This document shows positions 1 through 19,194 of a stretch of DNA of 23,412 nucleotides, piece by piece. A model generated the notes under the pieces. That model ran no database searches and was not told the origin of the DNA. It was given only the letters and a program-made list of their open reading frames with translations. The DNA comes from an uncultured bacterium (GTDB lineage Bacteria; Lernaellota; Lernaellaia; Lernaellales; Lernaellaceae): contig CAZHPN010000041.1 in assembly GCA_964534375.1 (NCBI GenBank), positions 13,421 to 36,832 on the forward strand, in the 5' to 3' direction. The position numbers and the translations under genes were made by a program. Within the stretch, counting starts at the first letter, position 1, and every line of letters starts with the position of its first letter.

Positions 1-1420
1 GCGGGAGCGCGGGCTGCGCGAACACGAGCGGCGGTTCCGGTTTCGCCGCCGCCGGGGGCGGGAGCGCGGGCTGCGCGAACACGAGCGGCGGTTCCGGTTT
101 CGCCGCCGCCGGAGCGGGCGCCGGCTGTGGCAACGCCATGGGCTGTTCAGGTTTCGCCGCCGGAGGCGTGGGAGCGGGGAGTGCGAACACGGGCGGCGGT
201 TCCGGCTTTGCCGCTGTCGGAACGGACACCGGCTGCGCGAACACGGGCAGCCGCACAGGTTTCGCTGCCGGGGGCGGGAGCGCGGGCTCTGCAAACACGG
301 GCGGCGGTTCCGGCTTCGCCGCCGAAGGCGCCGGCATCGGCCGCGCGTACACGGGCGGGAGTTCCGGCTTCCCCGCCGGGGGCGTGGGGATGGGGAGTGC
401 GAAAACGAGTGGCGGTTCCGGTTTCGCCGCCGCCGGAGCGGGCGCGGGCCGCGGCAACGCGAGGGGTGGTTCAAGTTTCACCGCCGCCGGAGCGGGCGCC
501 GGCTGCTGGAACTCGATGGGCGGTTCAGGTTCCGCCGCCGGGAACGAAGGCGTGGGCTCTGCGAACTCGGCCGGCGGTTCCGGTTTCACCGCCGCCGGAG
601 CGGGCGCCGGCTGCTGGAACTCGATGGGCGGTTCAGGTTCCGCCGCCGGAGGCGGAGGCGCGGGCTCTGCGAACTCGGGCGGCGGTTCAGGTTTCGCCGC
701 CGCCGGAGCGGGCGTCGGCTGCTGGAACTCGATGGGCGGTTCAGGTTCCGCCGCCGGAGGGGGAGGCGCGGGCTCTGCGAACTCGGGCGACGGTTCAGGT
801 TCCGCCACCGGGGGTGTGGGGGCGGGCTGCGCTAACATGGGTGGCGGTTCGGGTTTCGCTGCCGAAGGCTCCGGCAGCGACTGCGCGGACACTGGCGGCA
901 GTTCCGGCTTCCCCGCCGGGGGCGTGGGGATGGGGAGTGCGAAAACGAGTGGCGGTTCCGGTTTCGCCGCCGCCGGAGCGGGCGCGGGCCGCGGCAACGC
1001 GAGGGGTGGTTCAAGTTTCACCGCCGCCGGAGCGGGCGCCGGCTGCTGGAACTCGATGGGCGGTTCAGGTTCCGCCGCCGGAGGCGGAGGCGCGGGCTCT
1101 GCGAACTCGGGCGGCGGTTCCGGTTTCGCCGCCGCCGGAGCGGGCGTCGGCTGCGCGAACTCGGGCGGCGGTTCAGGTTCCGCCACCGGGGGTGTGAGGG
1201 CGGGTTGCGCTAACACGGGTGGCGGTTCGGGTTTCGCTGCCGAAGGCGCCGGCAGCGACTGCGCGGACACTGGCGGCGGCACAGATTTCGACGGCAAAGG
1301 CGCCGGCTTCAGTTGCGCAAACACGGGCGGCGGTACAGGTTTCGCCGCCGAAGGCGCCGGCATCGACCGCGCGAACACAGGCGGCGGTTCCGGCTTCGAC
1401 GGCGGCGGCACTTGCGCGGG
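1..1420 (-). repeat. Coding degenerate tandem repeats (about 17-19 aa units, consensus roughly PAPAAAKPEPPPxFAQ) within the caspase protein
   Basis: 1-55 repeats at 58-112 (57-nt period). 360-541 is identical to 900-1081. 781-899 is nearly identical to 1159-1277. Confidence 0.9.
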
Positions 1421-3364
1421 TTGGGAAGTTTCGAAGGCCTTTGCCAGACGCGACGCGGCGCTCACCGGCGGCGGCGGCACGCGTTTTTTTCTGGGAAGCG
1501 TTGCTGCGGCCGTCGTGGCATCTTTGGCCAACACGTCTGGCGCCGGCCGCTCCTGGGACTCAGGCGGGGTTGCAGGCTGGGTCTCGTGGGCCACTATCGG
1601 CGGCGACGCTACGTCGGCGACCCCGTCCGGCGCTTCCGCGACCGGGATCGCCGTGCCAGGCTGTTCGCGGCTTTCAGCCTTCGCCGAACGGGGAGCAGGT
1701 GGTTTCGGCGGCGGTCCGATGCGGGCCATTCGCGACGATTTCTGCGCCTCGTCTTCGGCCAATTTTTTCGTCTTTTCGATGGCCGAAGTCAATTCGGCAA
1801 TTTGTCTTGCGTCTTCCAACAAGCGCGCCAATTTTTGGGTTTCCGCGTAGGCCTCCGTCGCCTGTTCGAACGCCTTTTGCTTCGTCAATGCCTCGGCGCG
1901 CCGGATTTTCACGGTCAGCAACGACTCAACGGATTTGATCCGGCTTTCGACCAATTGTAGGCCTTCGGCCGCCTCCGCATTGCCGGGGCTCGCGGCCAAC
2001 GCCTTGTTGAAGTATTGCCTGGCCGCCGAAAGACGGTCGTCACGGAAAGACTTCACCCCAGAGAGCAGGCAGTACGACGCGTCTTCGCCGTATTGGCGCA
2101 GGTAGCCGGTCAGGAGGGTCTCCGCCTCTACGCCGTGCTCGGCGTCGATCGCGGCGCGGATCCTGGACAGAGCGTCGGCTTTCTTGTCCGCCGGCGCGGT
2201 CTCTACAGGTGCGGCGCATGGGGACGGAATGGCGTCGACCGCCAGTCCCGTCGCTCGTTTCGGCGCGGCAAGCGCCGCATCCAGTGTTGCTTTCGCCGGC
2301 AACACGGCCTCGGGGTCGGGGAGAAACGGCAGGAAGTATTCGTCGGAAAGGCTGCCGAACAATAGCGGCTCCTGGCATAACTCTCTTTTGCGCGCTTCGC
2401 GTTGGACTGAAGTCCGCACATAGCTGAACAGGTCGTAGACCGAGACCCGGTCCGAATTGCGGCCCGTCGCTCCGCCGGTCAGGCCGTCGACCAGGTAGTA
2501 CGTGAAAAATCCGTGGCCCAAATTCTCATTTTCATAAGATTGCTGACTTACGCGGCAGGCGGAGAAAACGACGACGTTGTTGTCCGCGAGGCTGGCCATC
2601 GCCCGGTCCTGGTTGCCGACGGACAAACCCGTCGATTCGGACGCCGACGCCGCGTGACAGGAATCAAGGAAGAGCACCGCCCGTTTCGGGCTGATAGTTC
2701 GAATAACCTGCCGCAGGGCCTCGTAGCTAAACGCCGAATGGATAAACGACGCGCCGTCGGCGAAATCATGCGGCACGATGTAACCGCCGAAGGGCGAGTA
2801 GTGGCCGTGGCCGGCGAAATAGATGAGCAAGGAATCGCTGGCTGTCACGCGGCCGTACAAGGTCTCGAAGACGCGCGCGATGTTTTCCATCGTCGCCTGA
2901 TCGTCGAGGAGAATTTGCACATCCTGTTCGCGCAGCGCGTTGACCGTGGCTTTCGTCAGCAGTCGGTGAAACAGCCGCGCGTCGGCCGCCGCGCCGGGCA
3001 GGTGAGCGAAATTCGGATTCACATAATCGGAAATGCCGATGACGACCGCGTGGTTGCGGCTTTCCTCTTTCGAATCGACGTAATTGAACGCCACCTCGGC
3101 GCGAAGGTCGCGCTTGACGGCTTCAGCCATCACCGTCAACTTGTGCTCGCCCGGCGAATCGACCACGACGCGGCGGTAGATGTTCTTGTCGGTCGAGGCT
3201 TCGACGAAAATGCCGCGGGGACGGTCTTCGGTCATCACTTGGTCGTCGAGAAGGACAATGTAATTGTCGAACTCCTCCAGGACGCGAAACGCCACGGTGA
3301 AGACCTTGTTCTTGATATTTTGGCCCGGTTGGGGATAGAGAATCTTGATCCCGCTCTCGCTCAT
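1..3364 (-). CDS. Caspase-like (peptidase C14) domain protein with TPR-like region and long Pro/Ala-rich repeat tail; 3' end runs off the window
   Basis: Hand translation from ATG 3364 (GGAAAGG upstream): MSESGIKILYPQPGQ...AVVIGISDY...LPGAAADA...LLIYFAGHG (His codon 2809-2807)...VLFLDSCHA (Cys codon 2659-2657)...SACRVSQQSYE...GHGFFTYYLVDGL. Then TPR-like ARQYFNKALAASPGNAEA, then PEPPxxFAQPAP repeats. The same frame is confirmed at 139 and 58. It is missing from the ORF track, consistent with there being no stop in the window. Confidence 0.92.
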   Translation of the reverse strand, partial: MSESGIKILYPQPGQNIKNKVFTVAFRVLEEFDNYIVLLDDQVMTEDRPRGIFVEASTDKNIYRRVVVDSPGEHKLTVMAEAVKRDLRAEVAFNYVDSKEESRNHAVVIGISDYVNPNFAHLPGAAADARLFHRLLTKATVNALREQDVQILLDDQATMENIARVFETLYGRVTASDSLLIYFAGHGHYSPFGGYIVPHDFADGASFIHSAFSYEALRQVIRTISPKRAVLFLDSCHAASASESTGLSVGNQDRAMASLADNNVVVFSACRVSQQSYENENLGHGFFTYYLVDGLTGGATGRNSDRVSVYDLFSYVRTSVQREARKRELCQEPLLFGSLSDEYFLPFLPDPEAVLPAKATLDAALAAPKRATGLAVDAIPSPCAAPVETAPADKKADALSRIRAAIDAEHGVEAETLLTGYLRQYGEDASYCLLSGVKSFRDDRLSAARQYFNKALAASPGNAEAAEGLQLVESRIKSVESLLTVKIRRAEALTKQKAFEQATEAYAETQKLARLLEDARQIAELTSAIEKTKKLAEDEAQKSSRMARIGPPPKPPAPRSAKAESREQPGTAIPVAEAPDGVADVASPPIVAHETQPATPPESQERPAPDVLAKDATTAAATLPRKKRVPPPPVSAASRLAKAFETSQPAQVPPPSKPEPPPVFARSMPAPSAAKPVPPPVFAQLKPAPLPSKSVPPPVSAQSLPAPSAAKPEPPPVLAQPALTPPVAEPEPPPEFAQPTPAPAAAKPEPPPEFAEPAPPPPAAEPEPPIEFQQPAPAPAAVKLEPPLALPRPAPAPAAAKPEPPLVFALPIPTPPAGKPELPPVSAQSLPEPSAAKPEPPPMLAQPAPTPPVAEPEPSPEFAEPAPPPPAAEPEPPIEFQQPTPAPAAAKPEPPPEFAEPAPPPPAAEPEPPIEFQQPAPAPAAVKPEPPAEFAEPTPSFPAAEPEPPIEFQQPAPAPAAVKLEPPLALPRPAPAPAAAKPEPPLVFALPIPTPPAGKPELPPVYARPMPAPSAAKPEPPPVFAEPALPPPAAKPVRLPVFAQPVSVPTAAKPEPPPVFALPAPTPPAAKPEQPMALPQPAPAPAAAKPEPPLVFAQPALPPPAAAKPEPPLVFAQPALP

Positions 3365-3449
3365 GGCTTTCGCCTTTCCCGCGTCTTTCTTTTTTCGAAG
3401 CGGAGCGCTGCAACAGCGTCCGCGGCGCGTATTTGCCGCTCACTTCCCA

Positions 3450-4178
3450 TCAGAAGTCCTGCGGCGAGCCTGCCACAGGCGTCTTTTTGCCGACGGCAGG
3501 CACGCTCGGCGTCGCCGACGGCACAGGCGCCGTGTCGGCGGGCGCATTCGGCGCCGCCGCCGGCACAGACGCCTTGTCGGTGGGCGCATTCGGCGCCGCC
3601 GCCGGCAGCGACTCCTTGCCGGGCGGTGCGGCGTGACCCGCTACGTGCTTCTTGACGGCGGGCGCCGCATGTTGCTTCTCCACGACGGCATTCGCGACCG
3701 GCGGCGTCTTGCTGCTGGAAGCGCTTCCCGCGTCCCTGTTGTCGCCGTTGGGCGCCAACGCTCCTTCCCCCGCTCCGCCCGCCTGCGCCGCCGCCGCATC
3801 GAGCGGCGCATCGCCAGCCGGCGGACGCTGCCCTGTGGCCGAGACGGCAATCAACACCGCGATGTGCAGGCACAGCAACGATCCGAACATTGGCAATGTG
3901 CGGGGCCCCGGCGAAACCGGCGAACGGAAAACGCGCAACGACAATAATCCCAGCGCCAGTCCGACTGCCGCGGCAAGAATCCCCGCAACGAGTTGTCCGG
4001 TAAGCGCGAGAATGCCGCCGATGATCGGCGCAAGCAGACTGAAAAAACCGAATAATTTGGCCTGCTCCGCCTTCGCCCCGGTTTTTTTCTTCGCGCCGGG
4101 TCCGGCAGCCCGAGGAGGCTGGCGAAGCCCCGACGCCGGTTTGGCGGACCACTGCGTACTTCGCGGCGTTTGATTCAA
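3450..4178 (-). CDS. Hypothetical membrane protein (about 3 hydrophobic helices, Pro/Ala-rich C-terminal tail)
   Basis: 242-aa ORF with hydrophobic segments LFGFFSLLAPIIGGILAL, LVAGILAAAVGLALGLLSL and FGSLLCLHIAVLIAV. Its TTG start overlaps (TTGA) the reconstructed stop of the IS-split upstream gene. A 25-bp internal repeat lies at 3541 and 3583. Confidence 0.75.
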   Translation of the reverse strand: MNQTPRSTQWSAKPASGLRQPPRAAGPGAKKKTGAKAEQAKLFGFFSLLAPIIGGILALTGQLVAGILAAAVGLALGLLSLRVFRSPVSPGPRTLPMFGSLLCLHIAVLIAVSATGQRPPAGDAPLDAAAAQAGGAGEGALAPNGDNRDAGSASSSKTPPVANAVVEKQHAAPAVKKHVAGHAAPPGKESLPAAAPNAPTDKASVPAAAPNAPADTAPVPSATPSVPAVGKKTPVAGSPQDF

Positions 4179-4294
4179 AATTGATTCCTATCGTCCTGGT
4201 TGTCGGGCGTCGCCGGCGCCAGCCACGCCGGCGGCTGAAAAAGCTTTTCGTCGTCCAGCAGCCGTTGAAATTTTTCTTCTTTGTCGAATTTTTG
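4175..4294 (-). pseudogene. 3' fragment (37 codons plus stop) of the exported-protein gene split by the IS
   Basis: Removing 4295-7690 plus one TSD copy joins ...PLNPQK to FDKEEKFQRLLDDEKLFQPPAWLAPATPDNQDDRNQF* in frame. The TGA is at 4177-4175. Confidence 0.88.
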
Positions 4295-4319
4295 GGGAAT
4301 TATATACTTGACTACCTAA
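4295..4319 (+). repeat. Left terminal inverted repeat
   Basis: GGGAATTATATACTTGACTACCTAA, the exact reverse complement of 7666-7690. Confidence 0.96.
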
Positions 4320-4327
4320 GTTCACAA
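4299..4327 (-). promoter_or_regulatory. Putative outward-facing sigma70 promoter in the IS left end
   Basis: Minus strand TTGTGA (4327-4322), 17-nt spacer, TATAAT (4304-4299), pointing at the 4178 gene and the caspase gene. Confidence 0.55.
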
Positions 4328-4417
4328 GCCCATGAAATCACGTTGTTTTTTCATACCAGCGTTTCCTGCCGAAACTTTGCATGACGATCAGAATAACTCT
4401 AAAGTATTTTTTACGAT

Positions 4418-4469
4418 TATACTTGACTACCTTGATGCAAGGTGTTACGTTTAGGTTGTAAGTAAGGAG
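4418..4469 (+). promoter_or_regulatory. Putative transposase promoter overlapping an internal TIR-core copy, plus RBS
   Basis: TTGACT (4423-4428), 17-nt spacer, TACGTT (4446-4451) with an extended TG. TIR core TATACTTGACTACCT is repeated at 4418-4432. Palindrome ACCTTG-ATG-CAAGGT sits in the spacer, and AAGGAG precedes ATG 4478. Confidence 0.55.
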
Positions 4470-4477
4470 AATAACAG

Positions 4478-5395
4478 ATGAACGACAGTGTGACACTTTC
4501 TACCTTCCAGTTTTTCGAGAAGTTTCCAAACCAGGAGACGGCTCGTGTTTACTTGGAAGAACAACTTTGGGTTGATGGCCCTTTATGTCCGACGTGTGGT
4601 GGCAAAAACGTCACGTCCCGCAAGGGCGGTTACTACCGCTGTAACCCGTGCAAATTCGATTTCACGGTAAGGACGGGAACGATCTTCGAGCGGTCGCACA
4701 TTCCATTGCACAAGTGGCTTTACGGCATGTACCTGTTGGTCACGTCCCGTAAGGGTGTTTCTTCACTGCAACTTTCCAAGGAAATCGGGATCACACAAAA
4801 ATCGACGTGGTTTATGCTTCACCGGCTACGCGAAGTTTGCGGCGACAATTCGATCAAACTGGCGGGTATCGTCGAAATCGACGAAACTTTTATCGGCGGC
4901 AAAGAACGAAATAAACACGCGAGCAAGAAGCTCAACGCGGGGCGCGGCACGGTCGGCAAAGTGGCGGTTCTGGGTATGCGGGAACGCGGTGGGCGCACGG
5001 TGGCGATGCCCGTTGTCGGAACCGACAAGGCGACGTTGCAAGCCGAAATTCGTGCAAACGTCGAGACGACCGCCACGATCCACACCGACCAGCACGGCGG
5101 ATACGATGGCTTGGGCGCGGATTTTAAGGCGCACGAAACCATCGACCATTCGGCTGGCGAGTACAAGCGTGGCAACGTGAGTACGAACGGAATCGAGAGC
5201 GTTTGGGCCGTGATGAAGCGTGGCGTCTATGGCGTGTACCACCACGTCAGCGACAAGCACCTTGGCCTCTACACAAACGAGTTCGCTTTTCGCCTGAACG
5301 ATGGTAATGTTGGTCGTCAGACAATGGACCGAATTGCCAGCATCGTCGAAGGATCGACAGGCCATCGTTTGACGTATAAGGCGTTGACGACATGA
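4478..5395 (+). CDS. IS1595-family (ISXO2-like) DDE transposase
   Basis: N-terminal Zn ribbon CPTC...CNPC; GTIFERSHIPLHKW; HTH region; EIDETFIGG, IHTD, TNGIESVW, YTNEFAFRLN motifs. Confidence 0.95.
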   Translation: MNDSVTLSTFQFFEKFPNQETARVYLEEQLWVDGPLCPTCGGKNVTSRKGGYYRCNPCKFDFTVRTGTIFERSHIPLHKWLYGMYLLVTSRKGVSSLQLSKEIGITQKSTWFMLHRLREVCGDNSIKLAGIVEIDETFIGGKERNKHASKKLNAGRGTVGKVAVLGMRERGGRTVAMPVVGTDKATLQAEIRANVETTATIHTDQHGGYDGLGADFKAHETIDHSAGEYKRGNVSTNGIESVWAVMKRGVYGVYHHVSDKHLGLYTNEFAFRLNDGNVGRQTMDRIASIVEGSTGHRLTYKALTT

Positions 5396-6561
5396 GCGAT
5401 TCTTTAGACAAGCTAGACGAGTTCGCCAAGCTGGTTCTCGCGTATCGACCAAAGAAGAAACGGGATAACATGCAAAACAAGTCACTGAATCGAAGTTTAC
5501 ACGCCGCGAAGGCGACGAAGCAGGATGAGTTCTACACGCAACTTTCCGACATTGATGATGAATTGAAGCATTACACGAAGTATTTCAAGGGCAAGACTGT
5601 TTTGTGTAACTGCGACGATCCAAAGGTCAGCAATTTCTTCCACTACTTCTCGCACAACTTCGAGAAGCTGCAACTGAAAAAGCTGATCGCCACCTGCTAC
5701 AAGAATTGCGACGCCGATCTGTTCAGCAAGCACACGGATGAAAGAGGAATCTACCTTGAGTATGAGGGTGACAAGAGCGGCAACCGCGTCCCCGACCCGG
5801 ACGAAATCGGCATTCACAAGCTAAAAGGCGACGGCGATTTTCGTAGCGAGGAATGCGTTAAGCTGCTCAAGCAAGCGGATGTCGTCGTCACCAATCCGCC
5901 GTTCTCGTTGTTTCGGGAGTACGTTGAGCAGTTGGTGAAGTACAAGAAGAAGTTCCTCATCATCGGGAATACAAATGCACTCACTTACAAGGATACATTC
6001 CGCCTCATAATGGAGGACAAACTTCGCACCGGCTACACAAACTTCAATGTCGGAATGTTTTTTGCCGTCCCAGACGACTGGGAGCAATTCCATCACGTTG
6101 ACAAAGACGGTAGGAAAATCGTGCGTGTGGCGACTTCGTGCTGGTTTACGAATTTAGACGTTGCGAAGCACAAGGAATCCTTGCCTCTCTACAAGGAATA
6201 TACTCCAGAAGAGTTTCCCAAGTACGACAACTACGACGCAATCGAGGTGTCCCGTTACAAGGACATTCCGGCTGACTACGACGGGCCGATGGGCGTCCCA
6301 ATTACGTTCCTCGATAAATACAACCCTAACCAATTTGAGATCGTGGGGGTTACGCAATCTTGGTTCGACGGAAGAATCAAGACGTATCCTCAACAAACAC
6401 AGGTTGGGGCTGATGGGCATAGAAGCAATGTGACAAAGCTGAATGATGGAGCGGCATTGAAGTCTGACTCAATTCCTCAGAACACGACTTATTATATAGT
6501 TAACGGGGAATACTACGTCAAAGTTTATGCGCGGATTCTCATCAGAAGGAAAACCCCATGA
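5392..6561 (+). CDS. Adenine-specific DNA methyltransferase, EcoRI family (alternative start ATG 5470)
   Basis: DEFYT, KTVLCNCDDP, GDGDFRSEEC, VVTNPPFSLFREY (motif IV NPPF), YDNYDAIEV and MGVPITFLDKY are characteristic of this family. ATGA overlap with the transposase. Confidence 0.9.
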   Translation: MSDSLDKLDEFAKLVLAYRPKKKRDNMQNKSLNRSLHAAKATKQDEFYTQLSDIDDELKHYTKYFKGKTVLCNCDDPKVSNFFHYFSHNFEKLQLKKLIATCYKNCDADLFSKHTDERGIYLEYEGDKSGNRVPDPDEIGIHKLKGDGDFRSEECVKLLKQADVVVTNPPFSLFREYVEQLVKYKKKFLIIGNTNALTYKDTFRLIMEDKLRTGYTNFNVGMFFAVPDDWEQFHHVDKDGRKIVRVATSCWFTNLDVAKHKESLPLYKEYTPEEFPKYDNYDAIEVSRYKDIPADYDGPMGVPITFLDKYNPNQFEIVGVTQSWFDGRIKTYPQQTQVGADGHRSNVTKLNDGAALKSDSIPQNTTYYIVNGEYYVKVYARILIRRKTP

Positions 6562-7640
6562 AGATCGAACTTAAGGAAATCGCGATACAAAAGCTAACAG
6601 ACGACTTCTCCGACAGCGCCGAAGCGGGAGTTGTCGCGTATGGTGGAAAACTCGACATTCGACCGCCGTATCAGAGGGAGTTCATCTACAAGGACAAGCA
6701 GCGAGACGCGGTGATTGATAGCGTTCGCAAAAACTTTCCGCTGAACGTGATGTATTGGGCGGTACGCAAAGACGGCAATTTCGAGGTGATCGACGGGCAA
6801 CAGCGCACGCTTTCAATTTGTCAGTACATCAACGGGGACTACGCTATCGACGGGTTGTATTTCCACAATCTGCAAGATGACCAGCAACAACAGATTCTTG
6901 GTTACAAATTGATGGTCTATTTCTGCTCAGGGACTGACAGTGAAAAGCTAGATTGGTTTAGAACCATCAACATCGCTGGAGAGGAACACACCGAGCAGGA
7001 ATTGCGGAACGCTGTCTATGCAGGACCGTGGACAGCCGATGCCAAGCGGTATTTCAGCAAGACAGGTTGCGCGGCCTATGGGCTGGCGAGCGATTATCTG
7101 CGGGGCAGCCCGATCCGGCAGGAATATCTGGAAACGGCAATCGCATGGCGCTCGGATGGCAAGATCGAAGATTACATGTCGAAGCATCAGCACGACAACA
7201 ACGCGACGCCGCTGTGGCAATACTTTCAAAAAGTGATCGGATGGGTGAAAGCTACGTTTCCAGAGTATCGACGAGAAATGAAGGGGGTGGGTTGGGGAGT
7301 TCTTTACAATCAGTTCAAGGACAAAGAGTTCGATACCGACAAACTGGAAAAACAGATTGCCAAGCTGATGATGGATGACGATGTAGAGCGGAAATCTGGA
7401 ATTTACCCGTATGTACTGGATGGCGACGAACGACACCTGAACATCCGCGTGTTTTCCGACAACATGAAGCGGGAAGCATACGAGAGGCAAAAGGGCGTCT
7501 GCTCCTGGTGCAAGAAGAAATTTCAGTTGAATGAAATGGAAGGCGACCACGTCAAGCCCTGGCACGAGGGCGGGAAAACCAGCGCGGCCAACTGCCAGAT
7601 GCTATGTAAAGACGATAACAGAAGGAAGTCTGGAAAATAG
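6558..7640 (+). CDS. DUF262 (GmrS/ParB-like) plus C-terminal HNH endonuclease; putative restriction partner
   Basis: YQREF and VIDGQQRT (DUF262); CSWC...DHVKPWHEGGKTSAANCQMLCKDDNRRK (HNH); ATGA overlap with the MTase. Confidence 0.9.
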   Translation: MKIELKEIAIQKLTDDFSDSAEAGVVAYGGKLDIRPPYQREFIYKDKQRDAVIDSVRKNFPLNVMYWAVRKDGNFEVIDGQQRTLSICQYINGDYAIDGLYFHNLQDDQQQQILGYKLMVYFCSGTDSEKLDWFRTINIAGEEHTEQELRNAVYAGPWTADAKRYFSKTGCAAYGLASDYLRGSPIRQEYLETAIAWRSDGKIEDYMSKHQHDNNATPLWQYFQKVIGWVKATFPEYRREMKGVGWGVLYNQFKDKEFDTDKLEKQIAKLMMDDDVERKSGIYPYVLDGDERHLNIRVFSDNMKREAYERQKGVCSWCKKKFQLNEMEGDHVKPWHEGGKTSAANCQMLCKDDNRRKSGK

Positions 7641-7665
7641 TTGTCGTCTGATGATTCTCGACGAA

Positions 7666-7690
7666 TTAGGTAGTCAAGTATATAATTCCC
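7666..7690 (-). repeat. Right terminal inverted repeat
   Basis: TTAGGTAGTCAAGTATATAATTCCC, followed by TSD AATTTTTG. Confidence 0.96.
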
Positions 7691-9859: not shown

Positions 9860-9893
9860 CGGCGAACTCCTTTCTATCTATCAGCGCCCGAAT

Positions 9894-11798
9894 TCAGGCG
9901 ATTTCCGTTTCGACCGCCTCGTCGTTGCGTAAACCTAGAGCGCTTACGGTCGTCCCGAGGTCGACGGCCATTCCCCGAACCCGAAATGCCGCGACTTTGC
10001 CGGAAAACGGCAAGGGATAACCGGCCGCTTCGTAATCCGCGCGCACCATGTCGAAAACTTGCCCCAATGGGCTCGTGAAATAGATTTCGTGAATGTACAA
10101 GTCCGTGACGGCGCCGTCGGGCCCCCGCACGCGGAAGCAGGGCGGCGCCGGTTCGTCTGCTTGGACGGCAGCGGCGCCCTGCTTTGCCAGTCCGTCCTCG
10201 CGGTTCGCAGACGCTGGAACAGTCGCGGTCGGCGGCTGCAATGGAGACCCGCCGGCCCCTGCCGCGGGGCCGGCAGGGTCAACAGTGGACGCCGACCACG
10301 CCTCCGGGGGCGCCGCCGTCTCTTTGTACTCGTCGCGGGACCCGCTGTCGCGCCGGCCTTCCGGCATTGGAAAGGCCGCGGCGGGCGCGGCGGCTTTGGG
10401 CCTATACCCCTGGGTTTTCCCGGTAAAGCCGCCGCCGGCCTGGGGCCGGAAACCGGCGGCCGGGTTCCCCTGGATTTCGCGTTCGGGCGCCAACGACTCC
10501 CGGCCAAAAAGAAACGGCACAAAAAACAGGCCGCCAAGCGCCGCTAGAGCTATCAGGTAAATGATCATGACCTCGCGGGCGCGTTTGCCCTTTGAGCGCG
10601 ATTCGGCTGATCTAACGGGGGATGTTGGTTTGCCCGTTAGCGCCTGGTTCTTGATCGATTCGCAGATGGCGCGGAACGAGTCCTTAGGGACTTGGATGTT
10701 GCCCGCCACGTCCGAGAAATTCCTGGTGAGTTCGGGAGCGGTCAAGTTCGCGGCGGAGACCTTGTACTTGATGTCGCCGATCAATGCGTTGCGCGCGTGC
10801 CGACTCCGAAAATAAACGTGGAACTCCGCGGCGAAGGTCGCGGTGAAACCTCGCCACAGGTTCGACAGTTCATCGGCGGTGCGGATGCTGTAGTATTCGC
10901 CCGTATTAGATTTCAGGGAGCGAACGACTTCCTCGTCCAGACCGTCTTCGCCGCGGATATCGGGATCGCCGAAACCGACGGTATGCACTTGGAGTCCCGA
11001 TTTTTCGACCAGCCGAAGAATCTCGTCTTTTTTCATCTTGTACTTGGGGTCCAAATGGCCGGAGCCGGAATCGCCGGAGTCTTTTCCGTCAGTTAGCACG
11101 ATCATCGTCCGCCTTCCCGACTGCTTCGCCATCACCTCCAAACCGACGCTCACGGCCTTGTATAGGCACGTGTTGTATAATGGGCGGAGCTTTTCGACCT
11201 CCGACTTCAACGGCGCCGGGTCCGCGGAGAATTTGACTGAATCTGGCTCGCCGACCACCGAGTGGAATGGGAGAATGCCGATCTGGTCCTGCGGGCCTTT
11301 TCGGTCGATGAACTGGAGGAGCACTTTCTTCAATGCTTCGATCTTGCTGGTGCGTTCACCCTTGCTGGCCGGATATTTCATGCTCCCGGAAACATCCACC
11401 ACCAGCAGCACCGTCAAGGGGCCACGGGATGAAATATCCGCCGTAGGCGTCGGCGCGACGCCGTTTTCGCCGGCCTGAACGGCGGGCGTCGGTGAAGCTA
11501 AATCAGCCTCCGTCTGCCGAACAACCTTTCGTTCCGTCGGGGGGATCGGGCGTCCATCTTCCTGAACCATGATCGAATCAACGACGTTCTGCTCGACCTG
11601 GACCGGTTTGCCGTGTTCATCGACGAGATTAAGGTCGATGACAATGCACGGTCGGTCTTCGTAATCGCTGAGTTCAACCTGGTTGATCTTAATCTCTTTC
11701 GGCGCAGCGCCGGCGTCGACGGCGCTGAGCGCCCAAGCCGCCGCCAAAAAGCAGCAAGCCAAGAACAACCGTGGTTTGCTTTCTTTCATACGTCTCAT
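9894..11798 (-). CDS. Signal peptide, VWA domain, TM helix, Pro/Ala linker and C-terminal ubiquitin-like domain
   Basis: MIDAS DVSGS, NTCLY, IVLTDG, VHTVGFG; TM VMIIYLIALAALGGLFFVPFLF; the C-terminal about 80 aa align with the Ubl of the E2 fusion. Confidence 0.88.
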   Translation of the reverse strand: MRRMKESKPRLFLACCFLAAAWALSAVDAGAAPKEIKINQVELSDYEDRPCIVIDLNLVDEHGKPVQVEQNVVDSIMVQEDGRPIPPTERKVVRQTEADLASPTPAVQAGENGVAPTPTADISSRGPLTVLLVVDVSGSMKYPASKGERTSKIEALKKVLLQFIDRKGPQDQIGILPFHSVVGEPDSVKFSADPAPLKSEVEKLRPLYNTCLYKAVSVGLEVMAKQSGRRTMIVLTDGKDSGDSGSGHLDPKYKMKKDEILRLVEKSGLQVHTVGFGDPDIRGEDGLDEEVVRSLKSNTGEYYSIRTADELSNLWRGFTATFAAEFHVYFRSRHARNALIGDIKYKVSAANLTAPELTRNFSDVAGNIQVPKDSFRAICESIKNQALTGKPTSPVRSAESRSKGKRAREVMIIYLIALAALGGLFFVPFLFGRESLAPEREIQGNPAAGFRPQAGGGFTGKTQGYRPKAAAPAAAFPMPEGRRDSGSRDEYKETAAPPEAWSASTVDPAGPAAGAGGSPLQPPTATVPASANREDGLAKQGAAAVQADEPAPPCFRVRGPDGAVTDLYIHEIYFTSPLGQVFDMVRADYEAAGYPLPFSGKVAAFRVRGMAVDLGTTVSALGLRNDEAVETEIA

Positions 11799-12745
11799 TC
11801 CTTCGAGGCCCCGCGCCGCAGGCGGAAATGAAAACGAGTTTTCCCCAATTGCACGGTGTCGCCATGTTTCAGTGCGATCGGGGCGGTCACCTGTTGATTA
11901 TTCACATAGGTCGCCGCGCCCTGGTTTTGCGCTTCGGGCATCTTCACCCACAACGGCGTCAGCAGGTAACGATTGGTGTCCTCGGACCACTCCAAGATCG
12001 CGTGCACGGCGTCGATGTCCGGATCATTGGCGCGAATCTGCAAATTCGCCTTCGGGCTCGAGCGGCCGGGGTCGCCATTGCCGAAGACGTTCAACGCATC
12101 GCGGAAGACCGGGCTGTGAAAACGGCCGTCGTATTTGGCGATGTTGCTGTCGTCGCCAACCAACTCGACATGTGCCGATAACGAGACGATGGCGTGAATG
12201 GCCAGCGCCAGCAAGCCGCCCATGAGTGTAACCGACGACACGCGCACCCAGTCGATGCTCACGGGCAAAAACCGTGCAACCCAGAACAGCAGTCCCGCAA
12301 TCACGCCGCCGACCATGCCGCCAATCAGCCCCCAAACGGCCCGCGAAACCGACATTGGATGCAGAGCCTGGCCCACGCCGATCACCAACCCGATCAAAAC
12401 AAACGCGACCACCCGCGCCAGTATGTCGTTGGACGCAACCAAATTCTGGTACGCGAGAATGCCGAGCCAGCCGCCCGCGACGCCCCCGCCGACGCCGGTG
12501 GCGGCCCCGATCACGGCGTCGCGCCACGCGTTCGCAAGGCCCGACATCCAGACGTTTTCTGCGGCGCAGATCGTCGCCCCGACGAAAAGGCCCACGGCGC
12601 CGAATAGCGGAAGCGAATCCCACGGCTTCGCCAGCGCCATCGGCGACAACAGCGAGAACAGCTCCGAGACAAACCAGCCCGACGCGCCCGCGATCATACC
12701 GGCGACGGAAAACAAATAAAGCACCGCCCATGGAAACACGAGCAT
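11795..12745 (-). CDS. Multi-pass membrane protein with C-terminal FHA-like domain
   Basis: About 6 Gly-rich TM helices, then DPDIDAVHAILEW...TYVNNQQV...LKHGDTVQLGKTRFHF (FHA C-terminal signature); ATGA overlap with the VWA gene. Confidence 0.85.
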   Translation of the reverse strand: MLVFPWAVLYLFSVAGMIAGASGWFVSELFSLLSPMALAKPWDSLPLFGAVGLFVGATICAAENVWMSGLANAWRDAVIGAATGVGGGVAGGWLGILAYQNLVASNDILARVVAFVLIGLVIGVGQALHPMSVSRAVWGLIGGMVGGVIAGLLFWVARFLPVSIDWVRVSSVTLMGGLLALAIHAIVSLSAHVELVGDDSNIAKYDGRFHSPVFRDALNVFGNGDPGRSSPKANLQIRANDPDIDAVHAILEWSEDTNRYLLTPLWVKMPEAQNQGAATYVNNQQVTAPIALKHGDTVQLGKTRFHFRLRRGASKE

Positions 12746-12750
12746 ACTCC

Positions 12751-14724
12751 TTAGAAGTCCTGGCCTTTCCCCGTGCTTGTCGCGCGCGCCGAACGCCCAC
12801 GCGTTGCCCTAGACCTGATCCGGTCGGCCGCGGGTCTGTCTGGCGACGACGCCGACCAACGGGCCGAGTATTGATATTTGCCGCCGTTGAGATCCACGGT
12901 CAGTTCGACAGCGCTGGGTTCGGCTGCCGTCCACCCGACCCCACCGGGGCACAATGAATAATCTGGATTTATTTCACCGCCGTTAAGCGCATTGGTCACC
13001 GTGGCGGGATCTAACGTCAGCGGGCACGATTTGCCGCCGTTCCATTCCAGCATCAACGACCCGCTTTCAACGGTCAGCCCCCCAGCCCTGACGGCGTCCA
13101 ACTCATCTGAGGACGGCATCTCAGATAGGAAAACCGCGCGGTGGAAATAAGTCAACTTGCCAAGGGTCGATTTCGGTTTGCCGTTGAGATTGTCTTCCCA
13201 GAATCTTCCACGATTGGGCGCTTCGCCTTTGGTCAACAACTCCAACTCGAATAAAGCAGTCCCCGAGCCGCCGGCCTTAATCGTGAATTGACGGATGCCG
13301 CGGCGAAAGCCGTCAAAATCCAAAGCGGCTATTTCCCCCCCGCCGTTGGAACCCGCAGCCGTCGAAACGCGGGAGATGGTCGCCTTCACGAAATCTTGCC
13401 TCGTCATTTCTTTCGGAACATCCCATTTGAGCTCGTACGTATCAGCCGACACCGTGCGCCCGTGGAGGTTGAGCGCTGGCGGTTCCGTGTGCAGAGCCGG
13501 CCAGATGAACTGATCCAGGAGGATCAAAATCAGGAGGAACAACACCAGGCCCGCCGGAACCATGATTCGCCAATGGGTCAGTTTGGCCCACCATTTCACT
13601 TCGACCGTTGGCGAACCGGAAAAAACCATGGGCGCCGGCCCGATCGAAAACGCGGGGCCGACCGCCGAGGCGGCGGCTTCGTTTGGCGCGCCGCGCAAAT
13701 AACCGATCGGCCGATTCGGGTCAAGCAGAAAAAAAACCTTTTGCGGCTTCTTATAATTGGGATGACCTTCGACTTCTTCGCGCGGAAAGAACGTCGCCGT
13801 TTTTCGTCTCGGTTGGACGACCATCGCCACGCAAAATGGCTCTTCGAAATTCCGGTGAAACATCGATTGGTCGTAACCGGAAAGAAACAAATCGTGGTCC
13901 GGGTGGCTGTGGTACCAGCCCACTACCTCGTACGACTTGTGCTGCGATTGGTTGAATTGTTGCAGTTGGTGCAAAATGTTGCGAACGGCGTACCCCGGAA
14001 AAGTAAACTCGGTCGCGCTGGCGTTTTCTGAATCAACAGGCGCCGCCATCTCGATGGTCACGGTGAAACGACCGGACTCGGCGTCCAGGCCATGGACGCC
14101 GAACAACACCCCGCCCACCTCCCGGGCCTGCGCCGCCTGCAAGCCGGAATCGCAGTGGTCGTGGATTTGGCGCAGAACGTCGCGGCTGACGTGCACGAGC
14201 ACGTGAGTCGTTTTTGGATCCCAAGTGAAGAAATCGTTTCCCACGGCCGTCGCGGGCTTGGCCGCCGGCCGGTTCTGCGGCGTCGGCGGCCGGGCCGGCA
14301 ATGGCGGAACTGGATGCCTAGATTCAGGGGCGGTAATTGACGAAACCGGCTCGACAGCCAAACCGGGCTGGAAAGTGTGTTCGACGACGTTCGACGTTTC
14401 GACAATCGCGTCGTGTGCTGATCGGTCGCGAGGCGGCGCATAAGCGTCGCGCGAGTCTTCGGCGTCGCTCGGGTCGGCCGGCGGCGCCGCCAACGGCGGC
14501 GGCTGTTCCCCGGCGACAGACGGCGGCGCTTCCAGAGCGCTCTCCGAAAACGGCGTCGCTGGCGCAGGAGACGCCTCAGCGCGCCCGGCCGCGACGAACG
14601 GCGCGGCCTCAACCACGCCCAATTCCGCGGACCGCTCGGCGGCGGTCGTATTCCCGTCCCGCGGACGTTTCGGCGCCGTGGCGCCGCGTTTCTCCCGGGA
14701 GTCGAGTGGTTCCGATTTCGCCAT
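12751..14724 (-). CDS. JAB/MPN+ (JAMM) metalloprotease with TM helix and C-terminal, probably extracytoplasmic domain
   Basis: EVGGVLFG...VVGWYHSHPDHDLFLSGYD matches E...HxHx7Sx2D; disordered N-terminus; TM IMVPAGLVLFLLILILL. Confidence 0.92.
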   Translation of the reverse strand: MAKSEPLDSREKRGATAPKRPRDGNTTAAERSAELGVVEAAPFVAAGRAEASPAPATPFSESALEAPPSVAGEQPPPLAAPPADPSDAEDSRDAYAPPRDRSAHDAIVETSNVVEHTFQPGLAVEPVSSITAPESRHPVPPLPARPPTPQNRPAAKPATAVGNDFFTWDPKTTHVLVHVSRDVLRQIHDHCDSGLQAAQAREVGGVLFGVHGLDAESGRFTVTIEMAAPVDSENASATEFTFPGYAVRNILHQLQQFNQSQHKSYEVVGWYHSHPDHDLFLSGYDQSMFHRNFEEPFCVAMVVQPRRKTATFFPREEVEGHPNYKKPQKVFFLLDPNRPIGYLRGAPNEAAASAVGPAFSIGPAPMVFSGSPTVEVKWWAKLTHWRIMVPAGLVLFLLILILLDQFIWPALHTEPPALNLHGRTVSADTYELKWDVPKEMTRQDFVKATISRVSTAAGSNGGGEIAALDFDGFRRGIRQFTIKAGGSGTALFELELLTKGEAPNRGRFWEDNLNGKPKSTLGKLTYFHRAVFLSEMPSSDELDAVRAGGLTVESGSLMLEWNGGKSCPLTLDPATVTNALNGGEINPDYSLCPGGVGWTAAEPSAVELTVDLNGGKYQYSARWSASSPDRPAADRIRSRATRGRSARATSTGKGQDF

Positions 14725-14734
14725 TTTGTTTCAC

Positions 14735-15658: not shown

Positions 15659-15660
15659 TC

Positions 15661-16317
15661 TTAACTCCTTCTCGCCGTCGTGTCCCAACCGTCGGACAGA
15701 ATCGCAACGTTGCAACTAGGGCAGAGGAAATTCTTGGCTTTCCACGATGATTCGCTCAGAAAGAATGGTTCGTCCGGATGGCCGTCCTCGTTGGGGCAAG
15801 CGTATACGGCAAACCTTCTGCCGCCTGGCCCGGAATTCGCGCCGGTAATCGGGTCCATCCAATTCGGGATGTACCGCGGGGCGCCGAATTGAGACGGCAT
15901 CTTCGTTTGCGGGAGAAGAATCCGGCCGTCGTCGGTGTACGTCTTGCCGCCGGCCTGCGCCGGCGCGGCTTGCGGATCCGGATAAGCATACGCAAAAACG
16001 CTGGCGACTCCTGCGGCCAGCCCAAACCCGCCAAAAACCCCAGCCAGAAGCCCAGGGTCGTCTTGAAAGGAGTACGCCACGTAGATCAAGCCAGGCACGA
16101 CAACCACGACGGCCGCGCCCAGGCGCGTTTTGCTAAGGAAACCTCGCCAAACAAACAGCGCGCAAGCTACGCAAGAAACGACACCGAAAGCTCCGGCGAC
16201 GAACACCGCGATGACGTCCGGGGGCACGAGATTTCGGCCGCCCAAGATCAGGAGCACGGGAAACGGCATCAGGGCAAAGGCTATGGGCGCGATGTGTCGG
16301 CTCATGTTGTATTTCAT
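15661..16317 (-). CDS. About 4-TM membrane protein with C-terminal one-zinc RING/SP-RING-like motif (candidate E3)
   Basis: ATG 16317 preceded by GAGG-containing purine tracts; four hydrophobic helices; C-terminal DPITG...CPNEDGH...W...CPSC. The CDS is certain; the E3 role is inference. Confidence 0.7.
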   Translation of the reverse strand: MKYNMSRHIAPIAFALMPFPVLLILGGRNLVPPDVIAVFVAGAFGVVSCVACALFVWRGFLSKTRLGAAVVVVVPGLIYVAYSFQDDPGLLAGVFGGFGLAAGVASVFAYAYPDPQAAPAQAGGKTYTDDGRILLPQTKMPSQFGAPRYIPNWMDPITGANSGPGGRRFAVYACPNEDGHPDEPFFLSESSWKAKNFLCPSCNVAILSDGWDTTARRS

Positions 16318-16333
16318 CCCCTCGACCGACCTC

Positions 16334-17533
16334 TCACGAAAACGAAAGCAAGCGGTCAATGTCGCCGGTCAATTCGGCGTATTGAAACGCAAGCGGATTC
16401 TCCGCGTCGCTCACTTTGAAAATGTCTCCCGGGCGAAATCCCGCATCCGCGAGCGTTTTTTCGACGCACAGCGAGCGACGGTTGATCAGCGCGCTGAATT
16501 CCGTGCCAGCCAGACGCAGCCCACATTTCGGACAAGACGCTCTCTTGCAATCCTTCCTGGCGAACACGAGCAACGGCAGACCAATGGCATAGTCCTCACC
16601 GCAGTTCTCACAGCGGGCCGTATGCAACAAATCGTAGAACAACTCGATTTGCGGATTCGCGAACGAATCAGCTAAAATGTCCAACAAGCCGCCGACGGTC
16701 GTACGATCTGCGGACACGTCAACCAACTCGACGACTTCAGTGATCGGGTACTCGGGGTGAACACTACAGTTCGGATTTCTCTTGATGGGGCGGGCGACAA
16801 ATCGTGGACTCCCGGTTTCGATAAATTGAATCACTCCCGGTTGCGGCGGCAAGCGGTCGTTTTTCACGAGATAGCGCAGCCCTTCTGTCATTTGAAGGCC
16901 GGCGATGATTGAGGCCATCATCGGTGTGGATGGGATGAACCCGGCCTCGGCGGCGCCGTGCTCGGAGATCGCACACGACCAGCGATTCAGTTGGGCGTTG
17001 AGATCGTAGTATTCCGCCCGCGCTTTTTTGGATTTGTTGCACTCGTAGCAAGGGCCGTCGGCTGAAGGTTGATAACTGGCAATCTGTCCGTTCAGTTCGA
17101 TGTTGGCGTTCATTCCGCCGTCCACCCATGGAGTACCGATGTGCTGAAGAACATGATTGAGATGGAAGCGCGGCAAATAACCATCGAAACAGCAGAAGAC
17201 CAAATCGCAACGGCGAAACGCCCCCATTCCCAACGTCATGATGTCGGCGGCGTAAGTGGCGACTCTCGTTTCCGAGTTTAGTTGCCGAAGTTTTTGCGCC
17301 GCGACCTCCACCTTGAGTTTGCCCACGTCGTCGCTTCGAAACAGCACTGAACGCGTCAGATTGGACGCCTCAACGGTGTCCCTGTCGACAAGAAACGCGC
17401 GGCCGATCCCGATCAGACCGAGCAATTTTACGATCTCATTCCCGATTGCGCCCACGCCCGCAACCATCACGGTCGCGTCGCGGATTTTCTGGCGGTCCCA
17501 CCAATGAATGGCGTCTAAACGAGAGTAATCCAT
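16334..17533 (-). CDS. ThiF/E1-like Ubl-activating enzyme with C-terminal Zn-ribbon/ubiquitin-fold extension
   Basis: DYSRL; GVGAIG nucleotide motif; DRDTVEASNLTRS; Zn site CYEC...CSVH; candidate catalytic WSC (Cys187); extra CENC...CPKC and KTLADAGFRPGDIFKV. Confidence 0.93.
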   Translation of the reverse strand: MDYSRLDAIHWWDRQKIRDATVMVAGVGAIGNEIVKLLGLIGIGRAFLVDRDTVEASNLTRSVLFRSDDVGKLKVEVAAQKLRQLNSETRVATYAADIMTLGMGAFRRCDLVFCCFDGYLPRFHLNHVLQHIGTPWVDGGMNANIELNGQIASYQPSADGPCYECNKSKKARAEYYDLNAQLNRWSCAISEHGAAEAGFIPSTPMMASIIAGLQMTEGLRYLVKNDRLPPQPGVIQFIETGSPRFVARPIKRNPNCSVHPEYPITEVVELVDVSADRTTVGGLLDILADSFANPQIELFYDLLHTARCENCGEDYAIGLPLLVFARKDCKRASCPKCGLRLAGTEFSALINRRSLCVEKTLADAGFRPGDIFKVSDAENPLAFQYAELTGDIDRLLSFS

Positions 17534-17624
17534 CGGATGCCCCCGCTGTTCTGCGGCTGCCCTCAGTGAAATTTTCTAGTTGCCGAACCCAAAGCCAGAA
17601 CCCAAAAACCGTGATTGAGGAAAC

Positions 17625-17653
17625 TTTTTAACTAACTGTGTGTTCTCTGTCAA
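17625..17653 (-). promoter_or_regulatory. Putative sigma70 promoter of the ubiquitin-like operon
   Basis: TTGACA (17653-17648), 17-nt spacer, TAAAAA (17630-17625), about 90 nt upstream of the E1 ATG. Confidence 0.5.
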
Positions 17654-19168: not shown

Positions 19169-19194
19169 AGCCACTTCGGATAGCCACTTCGGAT
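19169..19194. repeat. 13-bp tandem duplication AGCCACTTCGGAT x2
   Basis: Seen directly. Confidence 0.8.

Follow-up and report, generated by a model that had tools for sequence, protein, structure and literature searches.

How might a bacterium carry a ubiquitin-type conjugation pathway in its envelope and couple it to a caspase? The question is raised by a locus of an uncultured member of the family Lernaellaceae (phylum Lernaellota; assembly GCA_964534375.1), which lies in a stretch of 23,412 nt on contig CAZHPN010000041.1 (C41 in our numbering; positions 13,421 to 36,832), referred to here as the window. The host genome is 6.3 Mb in size, falls into 381 contigs and is 94% complete. An initial annotation, made from the letters of the window alone, had described ten co-oriented genes for a ubiquitin-type E1, a transmembrane (TM) RING-like protein, a fusion of a ubiquitin-like (Ubl) domain with an E2, a JAB peptidase with a TM helix, a TM-FHA protein, a VWA-TM-Ubl protein, two exported paralogs (G7 and G8), a TM protein (G9) and a caspase, and had proposed a signalling or conflict system across the membrane. 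We put the probability at about one-half that these genes make up a real and conserved operon encoding a Ubl-conjugation machine assembled at the inner membrane, a divergent member of a class of operons that encode E1, a TM-E3, Ubl-E2, JAB, TM-FHA and VWA, with the caspase as its output. Its lineage would have lost a recognisable RING and a free YukD-type Ubl, and would have gained the Ubl of the VWA protein, the JAB ectodomain, G7 and G8, a tail-anchored caspase and a DUF4384 protein.

All ten genes lie on the minus strand, from position 17533 down to position 1, and neighbours overlap or are at most 85 nt apart when an inserted element is left aside. The E1 gene is followed after 16 nt by the gene for the second-position membrane protein (here the TM/Zn protein, after its zinc motif), after 2 nt more by Ubl::E2, after 10 nt by JAB-TM and after 5 nt by TM-FHA. 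TM-FHA and VWA-TM-Ubl overlap by 4 nt, 34 nt separate the latter from G7, G7 and G8 overlap by 14 nt (G8 starts at 8628), and G9 is 85 nt away from the caspase gene. The inserted element lies in G8. Its in-silico removal, together with one copy of the target duplication, leaves G8 as a 349-aa open frame that ends at 4175 and whose stop overlaps the start of G9, in agreement with the claim of ten co-oriented genes with gaps below 90 nt once the element is taken out. Eight of the ten labels of the initial annotation hold. The two that fail are RING, to which we return, and TPR, which had been assigned to part of the caspase and for which no Pfam TPR family was found at E ≤ 0.01. The array had also been bounded at 1..17533, and there the annotation fell short: the caspase gene runs past the window edge, and no fewer than four further genes, closely packed and in the same orientation, lie beyond it.

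The labels E1, E2, JAB, FHA, VWA and caspase were confirmed by Pfam and PDB matches and by the positions of motifs. The E1 matches Pfam ThiF (E = 9e-42), and its best solved relatives are the eukaryotic UBA7 and UBA1 (1.3e-21), with MccB, ThiF and MoeB behind them. Cys187 and the pairs C308/C311 and C334/C337 are invariant in an alignment of 15 sequences. At E ≤ 1e-20 the E1 has 379 relatives of full length; the names of their sources include Planctomycetes, Armatimonadetes and Anaerolineales, and some of the relatives carry a GntR winged helix-turn-helix (wHTH). The true start of the Ubl::E2 fusion is the conserved Met of ‘MPNF’. Close relatives of the E2 carry PF00179, and a profile of 17 sequences found 258 PDB sequences at E ≤ 0.01 (best E = 3e-10); among the sequences listed, 60 of 60 are named as eukaryotic-type E2 (UBC). 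The Ubl part of the fusion (the 95 N-terminal residues) matches the SUMO-like family Rad60-SLD at 1e-4, under the curated cut-off. The JAB protein matches Pfam JAB (7.6e-11) and Prok-JAB (3e-8), is of the deubiquitinase type and has an intact JAMM motif HxHx7SxxD (HSHPDHDLFLSGYD at 272). Its ectodomain gave weak Ig/Fn3-like leads only (ESM Atlas scores ≤0.86, sub-threshold).

Most of the remaining components are membrane or exported proteins, and the predicted topology fits the extracytoplasmic picture that had been drawn for the locus, with the VWA domain between two hydrophobic segments, the JAB ectodomain and a lipobox-like signal on G7. The VWA domain (Pfam VWA_2, 4e-11) starts about 100 residues past the signal/anchor. 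The last 100 aa of the same protein are modelled by AlphaFold2 (AF2) as a beta-grasp (predicted local distance difference test [pLDDT], 84), for which the top Foldseek matches are SUMO2/3, NEDD8 and ubiquitin (probability 1.0). Both proposed Ubl domains are confirmed, the N-terminal one on the E2, seen in an alignment of 17 Ubl-E2 fusions, and the C-terminal one on the VWA protein. G7, whose lipobox-like N terminus was recognised by eye, belongs to no known family that we found, and its AF2 model is poor (pLDDT, 43). G7 and G8 are 27% identical over 127 aa at the C terminus (E = 3e-4), so that the view of them as two paralogs stands for the C-terminal ~125 residues and not for the whole length. 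G9 has no match in Pfam, NCBIfam or PADLOC. The catalytic motifs of E1, E2, JAB, VWA and caspase are all intact.

The caspase domain is assigned by Pfam at 2.3e-22. Its best NCBIfam model is NF047832 (‘EACC1-associated’ type; E = 5.6e-29), at 101 bits versus a cut-off of 140. The protein consists of an N-terminal beta-rich domain of about 100 aa, a helical region, Pro-rich repeats and a terminal TM helix. For the N-terminal 100 aa there is a weak BiPBP_C lead only (E = 0.048). The repeats are 18 aa long (54-nt period) with about one Lys each (26 Lys in 561 aa); about 25 copies lie in the window and more beyond it, spanning positions 7-1350 and contig C41 11988-13420. The window begins right after a scaffold gap of 100 N, and a second gap of 100 N lies 380 bases on, both inside the repeats; a repeat-encoding frame remains open in each segment and terminates with a TM helix followed by a short tail. 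After the caspase gene (contig C41 7037-11972) follow, with gaps of at most 41 nt, genes for an outer-membrane protein that weakly matches FadL/TodX, for two helical, apolipoprotein-like paralogues that are 48-53% identical to each other, and for a DUF4384 protein. Further downstream of the DUF4384 gene are two larger genes without known family.

That the set is conserved is evident from a second genome, G006, which belongs to the same family and another genus and carries it on two contigs. The first contig holds the genes for E1, the TM/Zn protein and Ubl-E2 and the start of that for JAB, where it ends. The second holds the remainder of JAB, then TM-FHA, VWA-TM-Ubl, a single G7-like gene, an open reading frame (ORF) of 126 aa with 3 TM helices, the caspase gene and, directly after it, a relative of the DUF4384 gene (22% identity between the proteins). 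The ten positions follow each other in the same order in G006, 9 of them backed by sequence similarity (Table 1) and that of G9 by position and topology only, as G9 and the 126-aa ORF have no sequence similarity. The caspase comparison was run on the first 560 residues to avoid a bias from the Pro-rich part; the G006 caspase, too, has a C-terminal TM helix, at 705-735. The V-A-A-G at the Ubl/E2 junction is found in both genomes. The flanks differ: upstream of the set, G006 has arginine-biosynthesis genes and an FGE-sulfatase-domain gene, and the window has NrfD/4Fe-4S genes and gene debris. The initial annotation had held that its reading would fail if E1, E2 and JAB homologs did not co-occur with the membrane and caspase genes elsewhere; all ten gene positions recur in this second genome, between other flanks. 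The record PMZC01000031.1 is placed in a genome numbered G061, whose matches are identical to those of G006.

Table 1. Features of the window in order of position, with amino acid identity of the encoded proteins to their G006 counterparts
Feature	Position	Strand	Description	Identity to G006
Caspase	1-3364	-	Peptidase_C14; His187 (AGHG), Cys236 (DSCH); runs off window	37% over 568 aa, E 2e-120
G9	3450-4178	-	Small membrane protein, 2-3 glycine-rich TM helices, ~120-aa Pro/Ala-rich tail	
G8, displaced 3′ end	4175-4294	-	Last 37 codons and stop; stop overlaps G9 start	
8-bp target duplication	4287-4294 and 7691-7698			
IS1595-family element with passengers, 3,396 bp	4295-7690		Perfect 25-nt inverted repeats, 8-bp target duplication	
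Transposase of element	4478-5395	+	DDE_Tnp_IS1595 1.5e-43	
EcoRI-like adenine methylase of element	5392-6561	+	EcoRI_methylase 2e-129	
GmrSD_N/HNH type II restriction enzyme of element	6558-7640	+	PADLOC REase_II 3e-135	
G8, 5′ part	7691-8628	-	Membrane-anchored, TM 17-45; C-terminal beta domain as in G7; cut at 7690/7691	25% (G006 G7-like gene, E 3e-6)
G7	8615-9859	-	Exported, probably lipoprotein; helical N-terminal part, beta-rich C-terminal domain	25% (single G006 gene, E 4e-13)
VWA-TM-Ubl	9894-11798	-	Signal/anchor, VWA with DxSxS (135), TM 407-433, disordered linker, beta-grasp ~550-634	32%
TM-FHA	11795-12745	-	Polytopic, 5-6 TM, C-terminal FHA; Pfam FHA 1.2e-9	55%
JAB peptidase-TM-ectodomain	12751-14724	-	JAB 176-310, one TM 382-413, ~240-aa C-terminal ectodomain	47% and 28%
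Ubl::E2 fusion, 307 aa	14735-15658	-	N-terminal beta-grasp to VAAG (92-95), UBC-type E2, HPN 196, catalytic Cys207	55%
TM/Zn protein	15661-16317	-	~4 TM helices and C-terminal ligands C174, H180, C199, C202	39%
E1, 399 aa	16334-17533	-	ThiF; Rossmann GxGxxG, candidate catalytic Cys187, two CxxC pairs, C-terminal domain	60%

Within the family and the phylum the distribution of the E2 is patchy: it is present in 3 of 61 related genomes (the window's own included), in 1 of 7 other genomes of the family and in 2 of 17 genomes of the phylum. A word-indexed search of 5.8 billion proteins returned 4 matches, one of them the E2 of the window itself, and a profile search of 1.84 billion representatives returned 108 at E ≤ 1e-3, of which about 15 are Ubl-E2 fusions by length (267-292 aa; 13 were aligned). 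A further E2 (P0002, 58% identical) and a further E1 (P0115, 53%) share one contig of 43,372 bases, which is probably a third instance of the locus. A metagenome scan added three marine contigs (L006-L008) with an E2 26% identical over residues 157-280.

To what class do these genes belong? In species-representative genomes, at least 579 of 600 matched stretches encode E1 relatives, and the best 80 loci were kept and scanned with profiles built locally from the window and G006 proteins. An E2 is encoded at 70 of these 80 loci, a JAB at 69, a Prok-RING-like domain at 52, TM-FHA at 21 and a VWA protein, adjoining TM-FHA, at 15. A caspase is encoded at one locus and the G7/G8 domain at none, and the zinc-motif protein was found only in the locus of G006 itself. 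Eleven Chloroflexota loci have the order E1 (~560 aa), TM protein (~300 aa), Ubl-E2, small ORF, JAB, TM-FHA and VWA, and phmmer relates the window proteins to them for TM-FHA (E = 3.5e-8) and VWA (3.9e-22). A TM ORF of at least 200 aa stands at the second position in 10 of the 11. With two of these ten left out (one doubtful frame, one near-duplicate), Prok-RING_1 was found in 8 of the 8 proteins tested, over the curated cut-off in 5. The small ORFs, seven in number, all end in ...TAG and match YukD in 3 of 3 tested. In related operons the C terminus of the free Ubl reads ...TAG or ...VAG, like the VAAG at the Ubl/E2 junction of the window.

Operons of E1, E2, Prok-RING and JAB genes with YukD-like Ubls were reportedly predicted from genome comparison by Burroughs, Iyer and Aravind in 2011 (Mol BioSyst). 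The window shares with this class, as represented by the 11 Chloroflexota loci, an E1 of the same family (full-length identity, 32-37%; Cys187 and the two CxxC pairs in common), the Ubl-E2 fusion with HPN...C, JAB, TM-FHA, a VWA protein with signal peptide and TM helix, and the gene order. It differs from the class in that Prok-RING_1, the free YukD and the wHTH on E1 are all missing from the window, and the locus adds the JAB-TM-ectodomain, the C-terminal beta-grasp on VWA, G7, G8, G9, the caspase and the DUF4384 protein. The Ubl domains of the window have no Pfam match to YukD, and a profile of the free Ubls of the Chloroflexota operons matches no window protein. The 10-nt gap between the E2 and JAB genes holds no small ORF for a free YukD-like Ubl, and PF08817 (YukD) has no match in the 94% complete genome. 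A quick maximum-likelihood tree of 81 E1 rows puts the sequences of the window and G006 together on a separate long branch (length, 2.87; support, 100) outside the Planctomycetota clade, a placement to which long-branch caveats apply. The 2011 class is cited in Kaur et al. 2020 (PMC7159879). The earlier statement that the architecture is not recognised was therefore too strong, since the core order is common to the 11 Chloroflexota loci and similar sets are described in PMC7159879. What is new here is a variant without RING and without YukD that is coupled to a tail-anchored caspase; the class itself had already been predicted computationally.

Other loci of the survey vary the theme. Two Bacillota loci (L036 and L047) encode a JAB-TM-LysM protein and trypsin-like peptidases, L036 with a Prok-RING protein in addition, and M48 peptidases are encoded at two loci. 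The combination of membrane JAB and peptidase genes in these variants suggests that a membrane Ubl system with a protease is a repeated theme. At L047 (8487-10265), the E2 is fused to TM-FHA in one polypeptide of 592 aa, as judged by Pfam, and YukD is also present. A 652-aa ORF of L052 (4209-6167) matches the local E2 and TM-FHA profiles. At L080 (7057-8844; Clostridia), a single protein joins an exported VWA to TM helices, carries Prok-RING_1 at its C terminus and adjoins JAB-TM and TM-FHA; judged by its domains, this protein may be vWA sensor and E3 in one chain. The first 2,155 bases of L020 (1-2155; contig C64 of genome G029, from an unrelated family) encode a compact soluble set of an E1, a free Ubl (...LVAG), an E2 and a JAB, followed after JAB by two secreted proteins without known family; one in-frame TGA is flagged in the E2 match.

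Three groups of known systems invite comparison. In the complex variant of the FtsH ternary vWA-MoxR conflict systems, as presented by Kaur, Burroughs, Iyer and Aravind (2020, eLife; PMC7159879), Ubl-E2, E1, RING, JAB, vWA and caspase are united, and a Ubl-E2 fusion, E1, JAB, vWA and a caspase-like effector thus share one operon, as in the window. According to the same paper, the vWA of that setting is fused to a beta-propeller (or ClpN repeats), the Ubl-E2 and the caspase carry EAD1, and a RING is present; by contrast, the VWA of the window is exported and membrane-anchored with no propeller family found, its Ubl-E2 starts directly with Ubl, it has no RING, and most of its components are membrane proteins. 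No model for EAD1 surfaced in the libraries searched with the window proteins, and no AAA+ family, be it MoxR or double FtsH-type, was found in any ORF of the window and the 13 kb downstream. Because MoxR, FtsH, propeller and RING are all missing from the locus, we conclude that the window is not a member of the FtsH ternary setting.

The second group comprises Bil, Bub and CBASS Cap2/Cap3 (PMC11601603), which also bring together E1, E2, Ubl and a JAB-type peptidase, with real conjugation chemistry. The gene set is alike; the window differs in having no E1-E2 fusion, a UBC-like E2 with HPN, a membrane-bound location, and VWA, FHA and caspase genes. The PADLOC check that had been suggested for known systems recognises only the adenylation part of the window E1 by E1-E2 models (best 7e-22; BilD 8e-7) and does not hit the E2, and the PDB comparison of E1 ranks BubCD (6e-7) behind UBA7 (1e-21). 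The third group is the type VIIb secretion system (T7SSb), in which YukD is a structural assembly factor, as stated by Oka et al. 2025 (PMC12637312): the ubiquitin fold occurs there, as in the window, with membrane proteins and FHA-bearing components, but conjugation, E1 and E2 have no place in that system as described.

The least familiar component is the TM/Zn protein, which occupies the position of the TM-Prok-RING E3 in related operons. The label RING-like was not upheld: conservation with the G006 orthologue (39% identity) is confined to C-x5-H...C-x2-C, a four-ligand zinc motif, and no Prok-RING match was obtained at E 10. An identity with Prok-RING_1 (PF14446), which is binuclear with eight ligands, was considered and rejected, as the protein has only four conserved ligands and gave no hit at E ≤ 10. 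Likewise, hhalign aligned it with TM-Prok-RING proteins at a probability of 3-11%, and the local RING profile, which matches 52 of the 80 related loci, meets it at a CPxC fragment only. PF14446 has no match anywhere in the genome (94% complete). The protein matches no family of Pfam (up to E 10), NCBIfam or PADLOC and has no match in PDB, and its C-terminal part has no relative but itself among 5.8 billion proteins. Scores in the ESM Atlas were ≤0.82 and thus sub-threshold, with zinc-ribbon clusters at TM-score below 0.5. When the E2 core and the zinc-motif domain were modelled as a pair, the score was 0.00 and the fold of the zinc-motif partner itself was uncertain; the result speaks neither for binding nor against it.

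How could such a machine work? We propose a cycle that would begin with the membrane-tethered JAB cutting the Ubl-E2 fusion after V-A-A-G, which would yield a Ubl with a C-terminal glycine. Release of Ubl from a Ubl-E2 fusion by JAB is proposed for the FtsH ternary setting in PMC7159879. The E1 would then adenylate the Ubl and pass it via Cys187 to Cys207 of the E2, and the zinc-motif protein may keep the charged E2 at the membrane, by analogy with the role presumed for the TM-Prok-RING proteins of related operons. The Ubl would next be joined to a membrane-proximal partner, for which the cytoplasmic tails of the VWA and FHA proteins and the lysine-bearing Pro-rich repeats of the caspase are candidates. 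A periplasmic module of VWA, G7/G8 and the JAB ectodomain could steer the conjugation, the activity or assembly of the caspase would be the output, and JAB would reverse the reaction.

Several observations weigh against the operon being such a conjugation machine with a caspase output. Every step of the cycle is what we infer from genes and motifs, and the conjugation targets named are candidates. The presumed E3 has no RING, and its role is presumed from gene position alone. The C-terminal Ubl of the VWA protein lacks a terminal Gly-Gly in either genome, and, by its sequence, is therefore probably not conjugated. In FHA domains, a Ser is usual at one position of the phosphothreonine-binding motif; by eye, the FHA domain of the window has Asp there. 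No kinase gene is encoded nearby, and together these two points make classic phospho-signalling through the FHA domain doubtful. A caspase near this E1 family occurs at only 1 of the other best 80 loci (L086), which argues that the link to the caspase is specific to a small clade of two genomes in one family and could be a recent juxtaposition. At L086, a Pirellulaceae locus, a caspase gene, an FHA-DUF6931 gene and a VgrG-type spike gene occupy 1-4072 (minus strand), and ~8 kb separates the caspase from a double E2/JAB/E1/Prok-RING cluster, which is encoded on the other strand. Finally, the inserted element, also found in a second sample, may have inactivated the downstream half of the locus.

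This element bears on the most serious of the alternatives, namely that the operon is a decaying remnant in this organism, in which the insertion truncated G8 and cut the caspase half off from the operon promoter and the system no longer works. The initial annotation had noted an insertion sequence (IS). It is indeed a mobile element, and it is more than an IS, since it carries a type II restriction-modification pair. Its G+C content is ~0.50, versus ~0.60 in the flanks. The element is an insertion into the Ubl system and not a component of it, a mobile type II restriction-modification unit that landed in another accessory system. In the genome of the window it truncated G8 and now stands between the upstream part of the locus on one side and G9, the caspase and the genes after it on the other. 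DNA contigs bridge both IS junctions in one further sample and the left junction in another, so the insertion is neither an assembly accident nor a rare allele. A single X3 contig joint, from 4313 to 7668, was rejected as an IS-free allele, as the joint falls within the inverted repeats and, with one side of 22 nt, is too short. Fragments just upstream of E1 that resemble ParA and HsdM genes by eye would also suit a locus in decay. Yet the displaced part of G8 amounts to just its final 37 codons, the other frames are intact with their catalytic residues kept, the perfect inverted repeats and the intact target duplication suggest a recent event, and the element could supply outward transcription. 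We regard the loss of function in this organism as a possibility to be taken seriously, though not as the likelier outcome.

Alternatively, the operon could encode an assembly factor of an envelope or secretion complex, in which the beta-grasps are non-covalent adaptors (YukD-like), the FHA protein is a scaffold (YscD-like), and conjugation and the caspase only tune or process the structure, with the Pro-rich spacer and the FadL-like protein as parts that span the envelope. In the syntenic operons of Chloroflexota and Bacillota, the free Ubl is of the YukD family, whose T7SSb member is structural according to PMC12637312, and the TM-FHA proteins of related loci match Yop-YscD_cpl. The missing Gly-Gly of the VWA Ubl, and the FadL-like protein and two apolipoprotein-like paralogues encoded within ≤41 nt of each other after the caspase, point the same way. 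However, no secretion ATPase, channel or substrate gene was recognised in the window and the 13 kb downstream, and the Ubl domains of the window give no family match to YukD, a family also unmatched in the 94% complete genome. Moreover, the catalytic residues of E1, E2 and JAB are all kept, which argues that covalent conjugation is central. We consider a mainly structural function of this kind unlikely.

A last alternative, two modules side by side without functional coupling (a six-gene membrane Ubl core and a membrane caspase module of G9, caspase and DUF4384, akin to the membrane-associated caspase conflict systems of Kaur et al. 2020), draws on the absence of a caspase at 79 of the best 80 other E1 loci, on the IS at the boundary of the halves, on the ‘EACC1-associated’ type of the best NCBIfam model, and on the statement in PMC7159879 that a third of EACC1-type caspases carry TM helices with a small TM protein encoded just 5′, but it seems improbable to us, given that two genomes from separate genera, whose flanks are unrelated, keep the halves adjacent, tightly spaced and in one and the same order, that removal of the IS leaves the G8 stop overlapping the start of G9, that NF047832 stays at 101 bits against 140, that G9 has no family and 2-3 TM helices instead of the single helix of EACC1, and that sets of Ubl-E2, E1 and JAB are, in the same paper, functionally tied to caspases in another system. 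The resemblance to the EACC1-caspase ‘System 4’ of that text goes further, as both have a TM caspase with a variable C-terminal region after a small glycine-rich TM protein; EACC1 is, however, defined there by its single helix, whereas G9 also has a 120-aa tail and the window pair sits inside a Ubl operon.

The conjugation machine at the inner membrane, with the caspase as output, thus remains our preferred reading. One extension of it we rate as a long shot. The locus might be an envelope-built counterpart of ubiquitin-controlled caspase activation, in which a ligand on the periplasmic VWA, G7/G8 and Ig-like JAB ectodomains would lead, through the membrane, to the attachment of Ubl to the regularly spaced lysines of the caspase repeats or to the VWA/FHA tails via a non-RING zinc E3, the tail-anchored caspase would be assembled or released to act in cell death or defence, and JAB would return the system to its resting state. 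If true, the zinc-motif protein would be a new, mononuclear and membrane-embedded kind of E3.

The conserved operon places the membrane form of the class in a small deltaproteobacteria-like phylum and suggests that the class can do without a recognisable RING and a free Ubl, which raises the questions of which protein serves as E3 and which beta-grasp is conjugated. In addition to the FtsH ternary systems, it may provide a second, independent bacterial link between Ubls and caspases. Should the two be truly coupled, the locus would be relevant to the question of how tagging of the ubiquitin type and proteolysis of the caspase type were first combined. In the literature searched, we found no bench test of the E1/E2/RING/JAB operons closest to the eukaryotic ubiquitin system, and the more distant Bil, Bub and CBASS were the only bench-tested ones. 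The value of the locus as a model is limited because the organism is known from metagenomes only, the full set is found in two genomes, and one of these copies, that of the window, has a mobile element within it.

The stretch of the window is present in several sequencing runs labelled wetland metagenome. DNA contigs of two further samples match it at 95-100% identity, mostly ≥99%. Contigs from two RNA libraries of two studies are 100% identical to parts of E1 through G8 and of the IS genes, and cover 14 and 17 of 30 bins. These matches give a weak hint that the locus is transcribed, the sign being weak because DNA carry-over is possible. Bases 1-3000, within the caspase gene, are uncovered by the RNA-library contigs, a hole in contigs that says nothing on silence or polarity.

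No Rfam family or tRNA was found in the window, and no sigma-70-like promoter was found upstream of E1 in 17400-18500. The ~3 kb upstream of E1 (17534-20500) contain no ORF with a family match. Of two overlapping frames at 18412-18908 (minus strand), one resembles, by eye, the C terminus of a ParA-type ATPase and the other the N terminus of a type I HsdM methylase, and they look like gene debris; Pfam found nothing on the frame 18412-18828. Beyond them, at 20518-22685 (minus strand), an NrfD-type membrane subunit and a 4Fe-4S ferredoxin-type subunit are encoded, an ordinary respiratory-complex pair at the flank of the locus.

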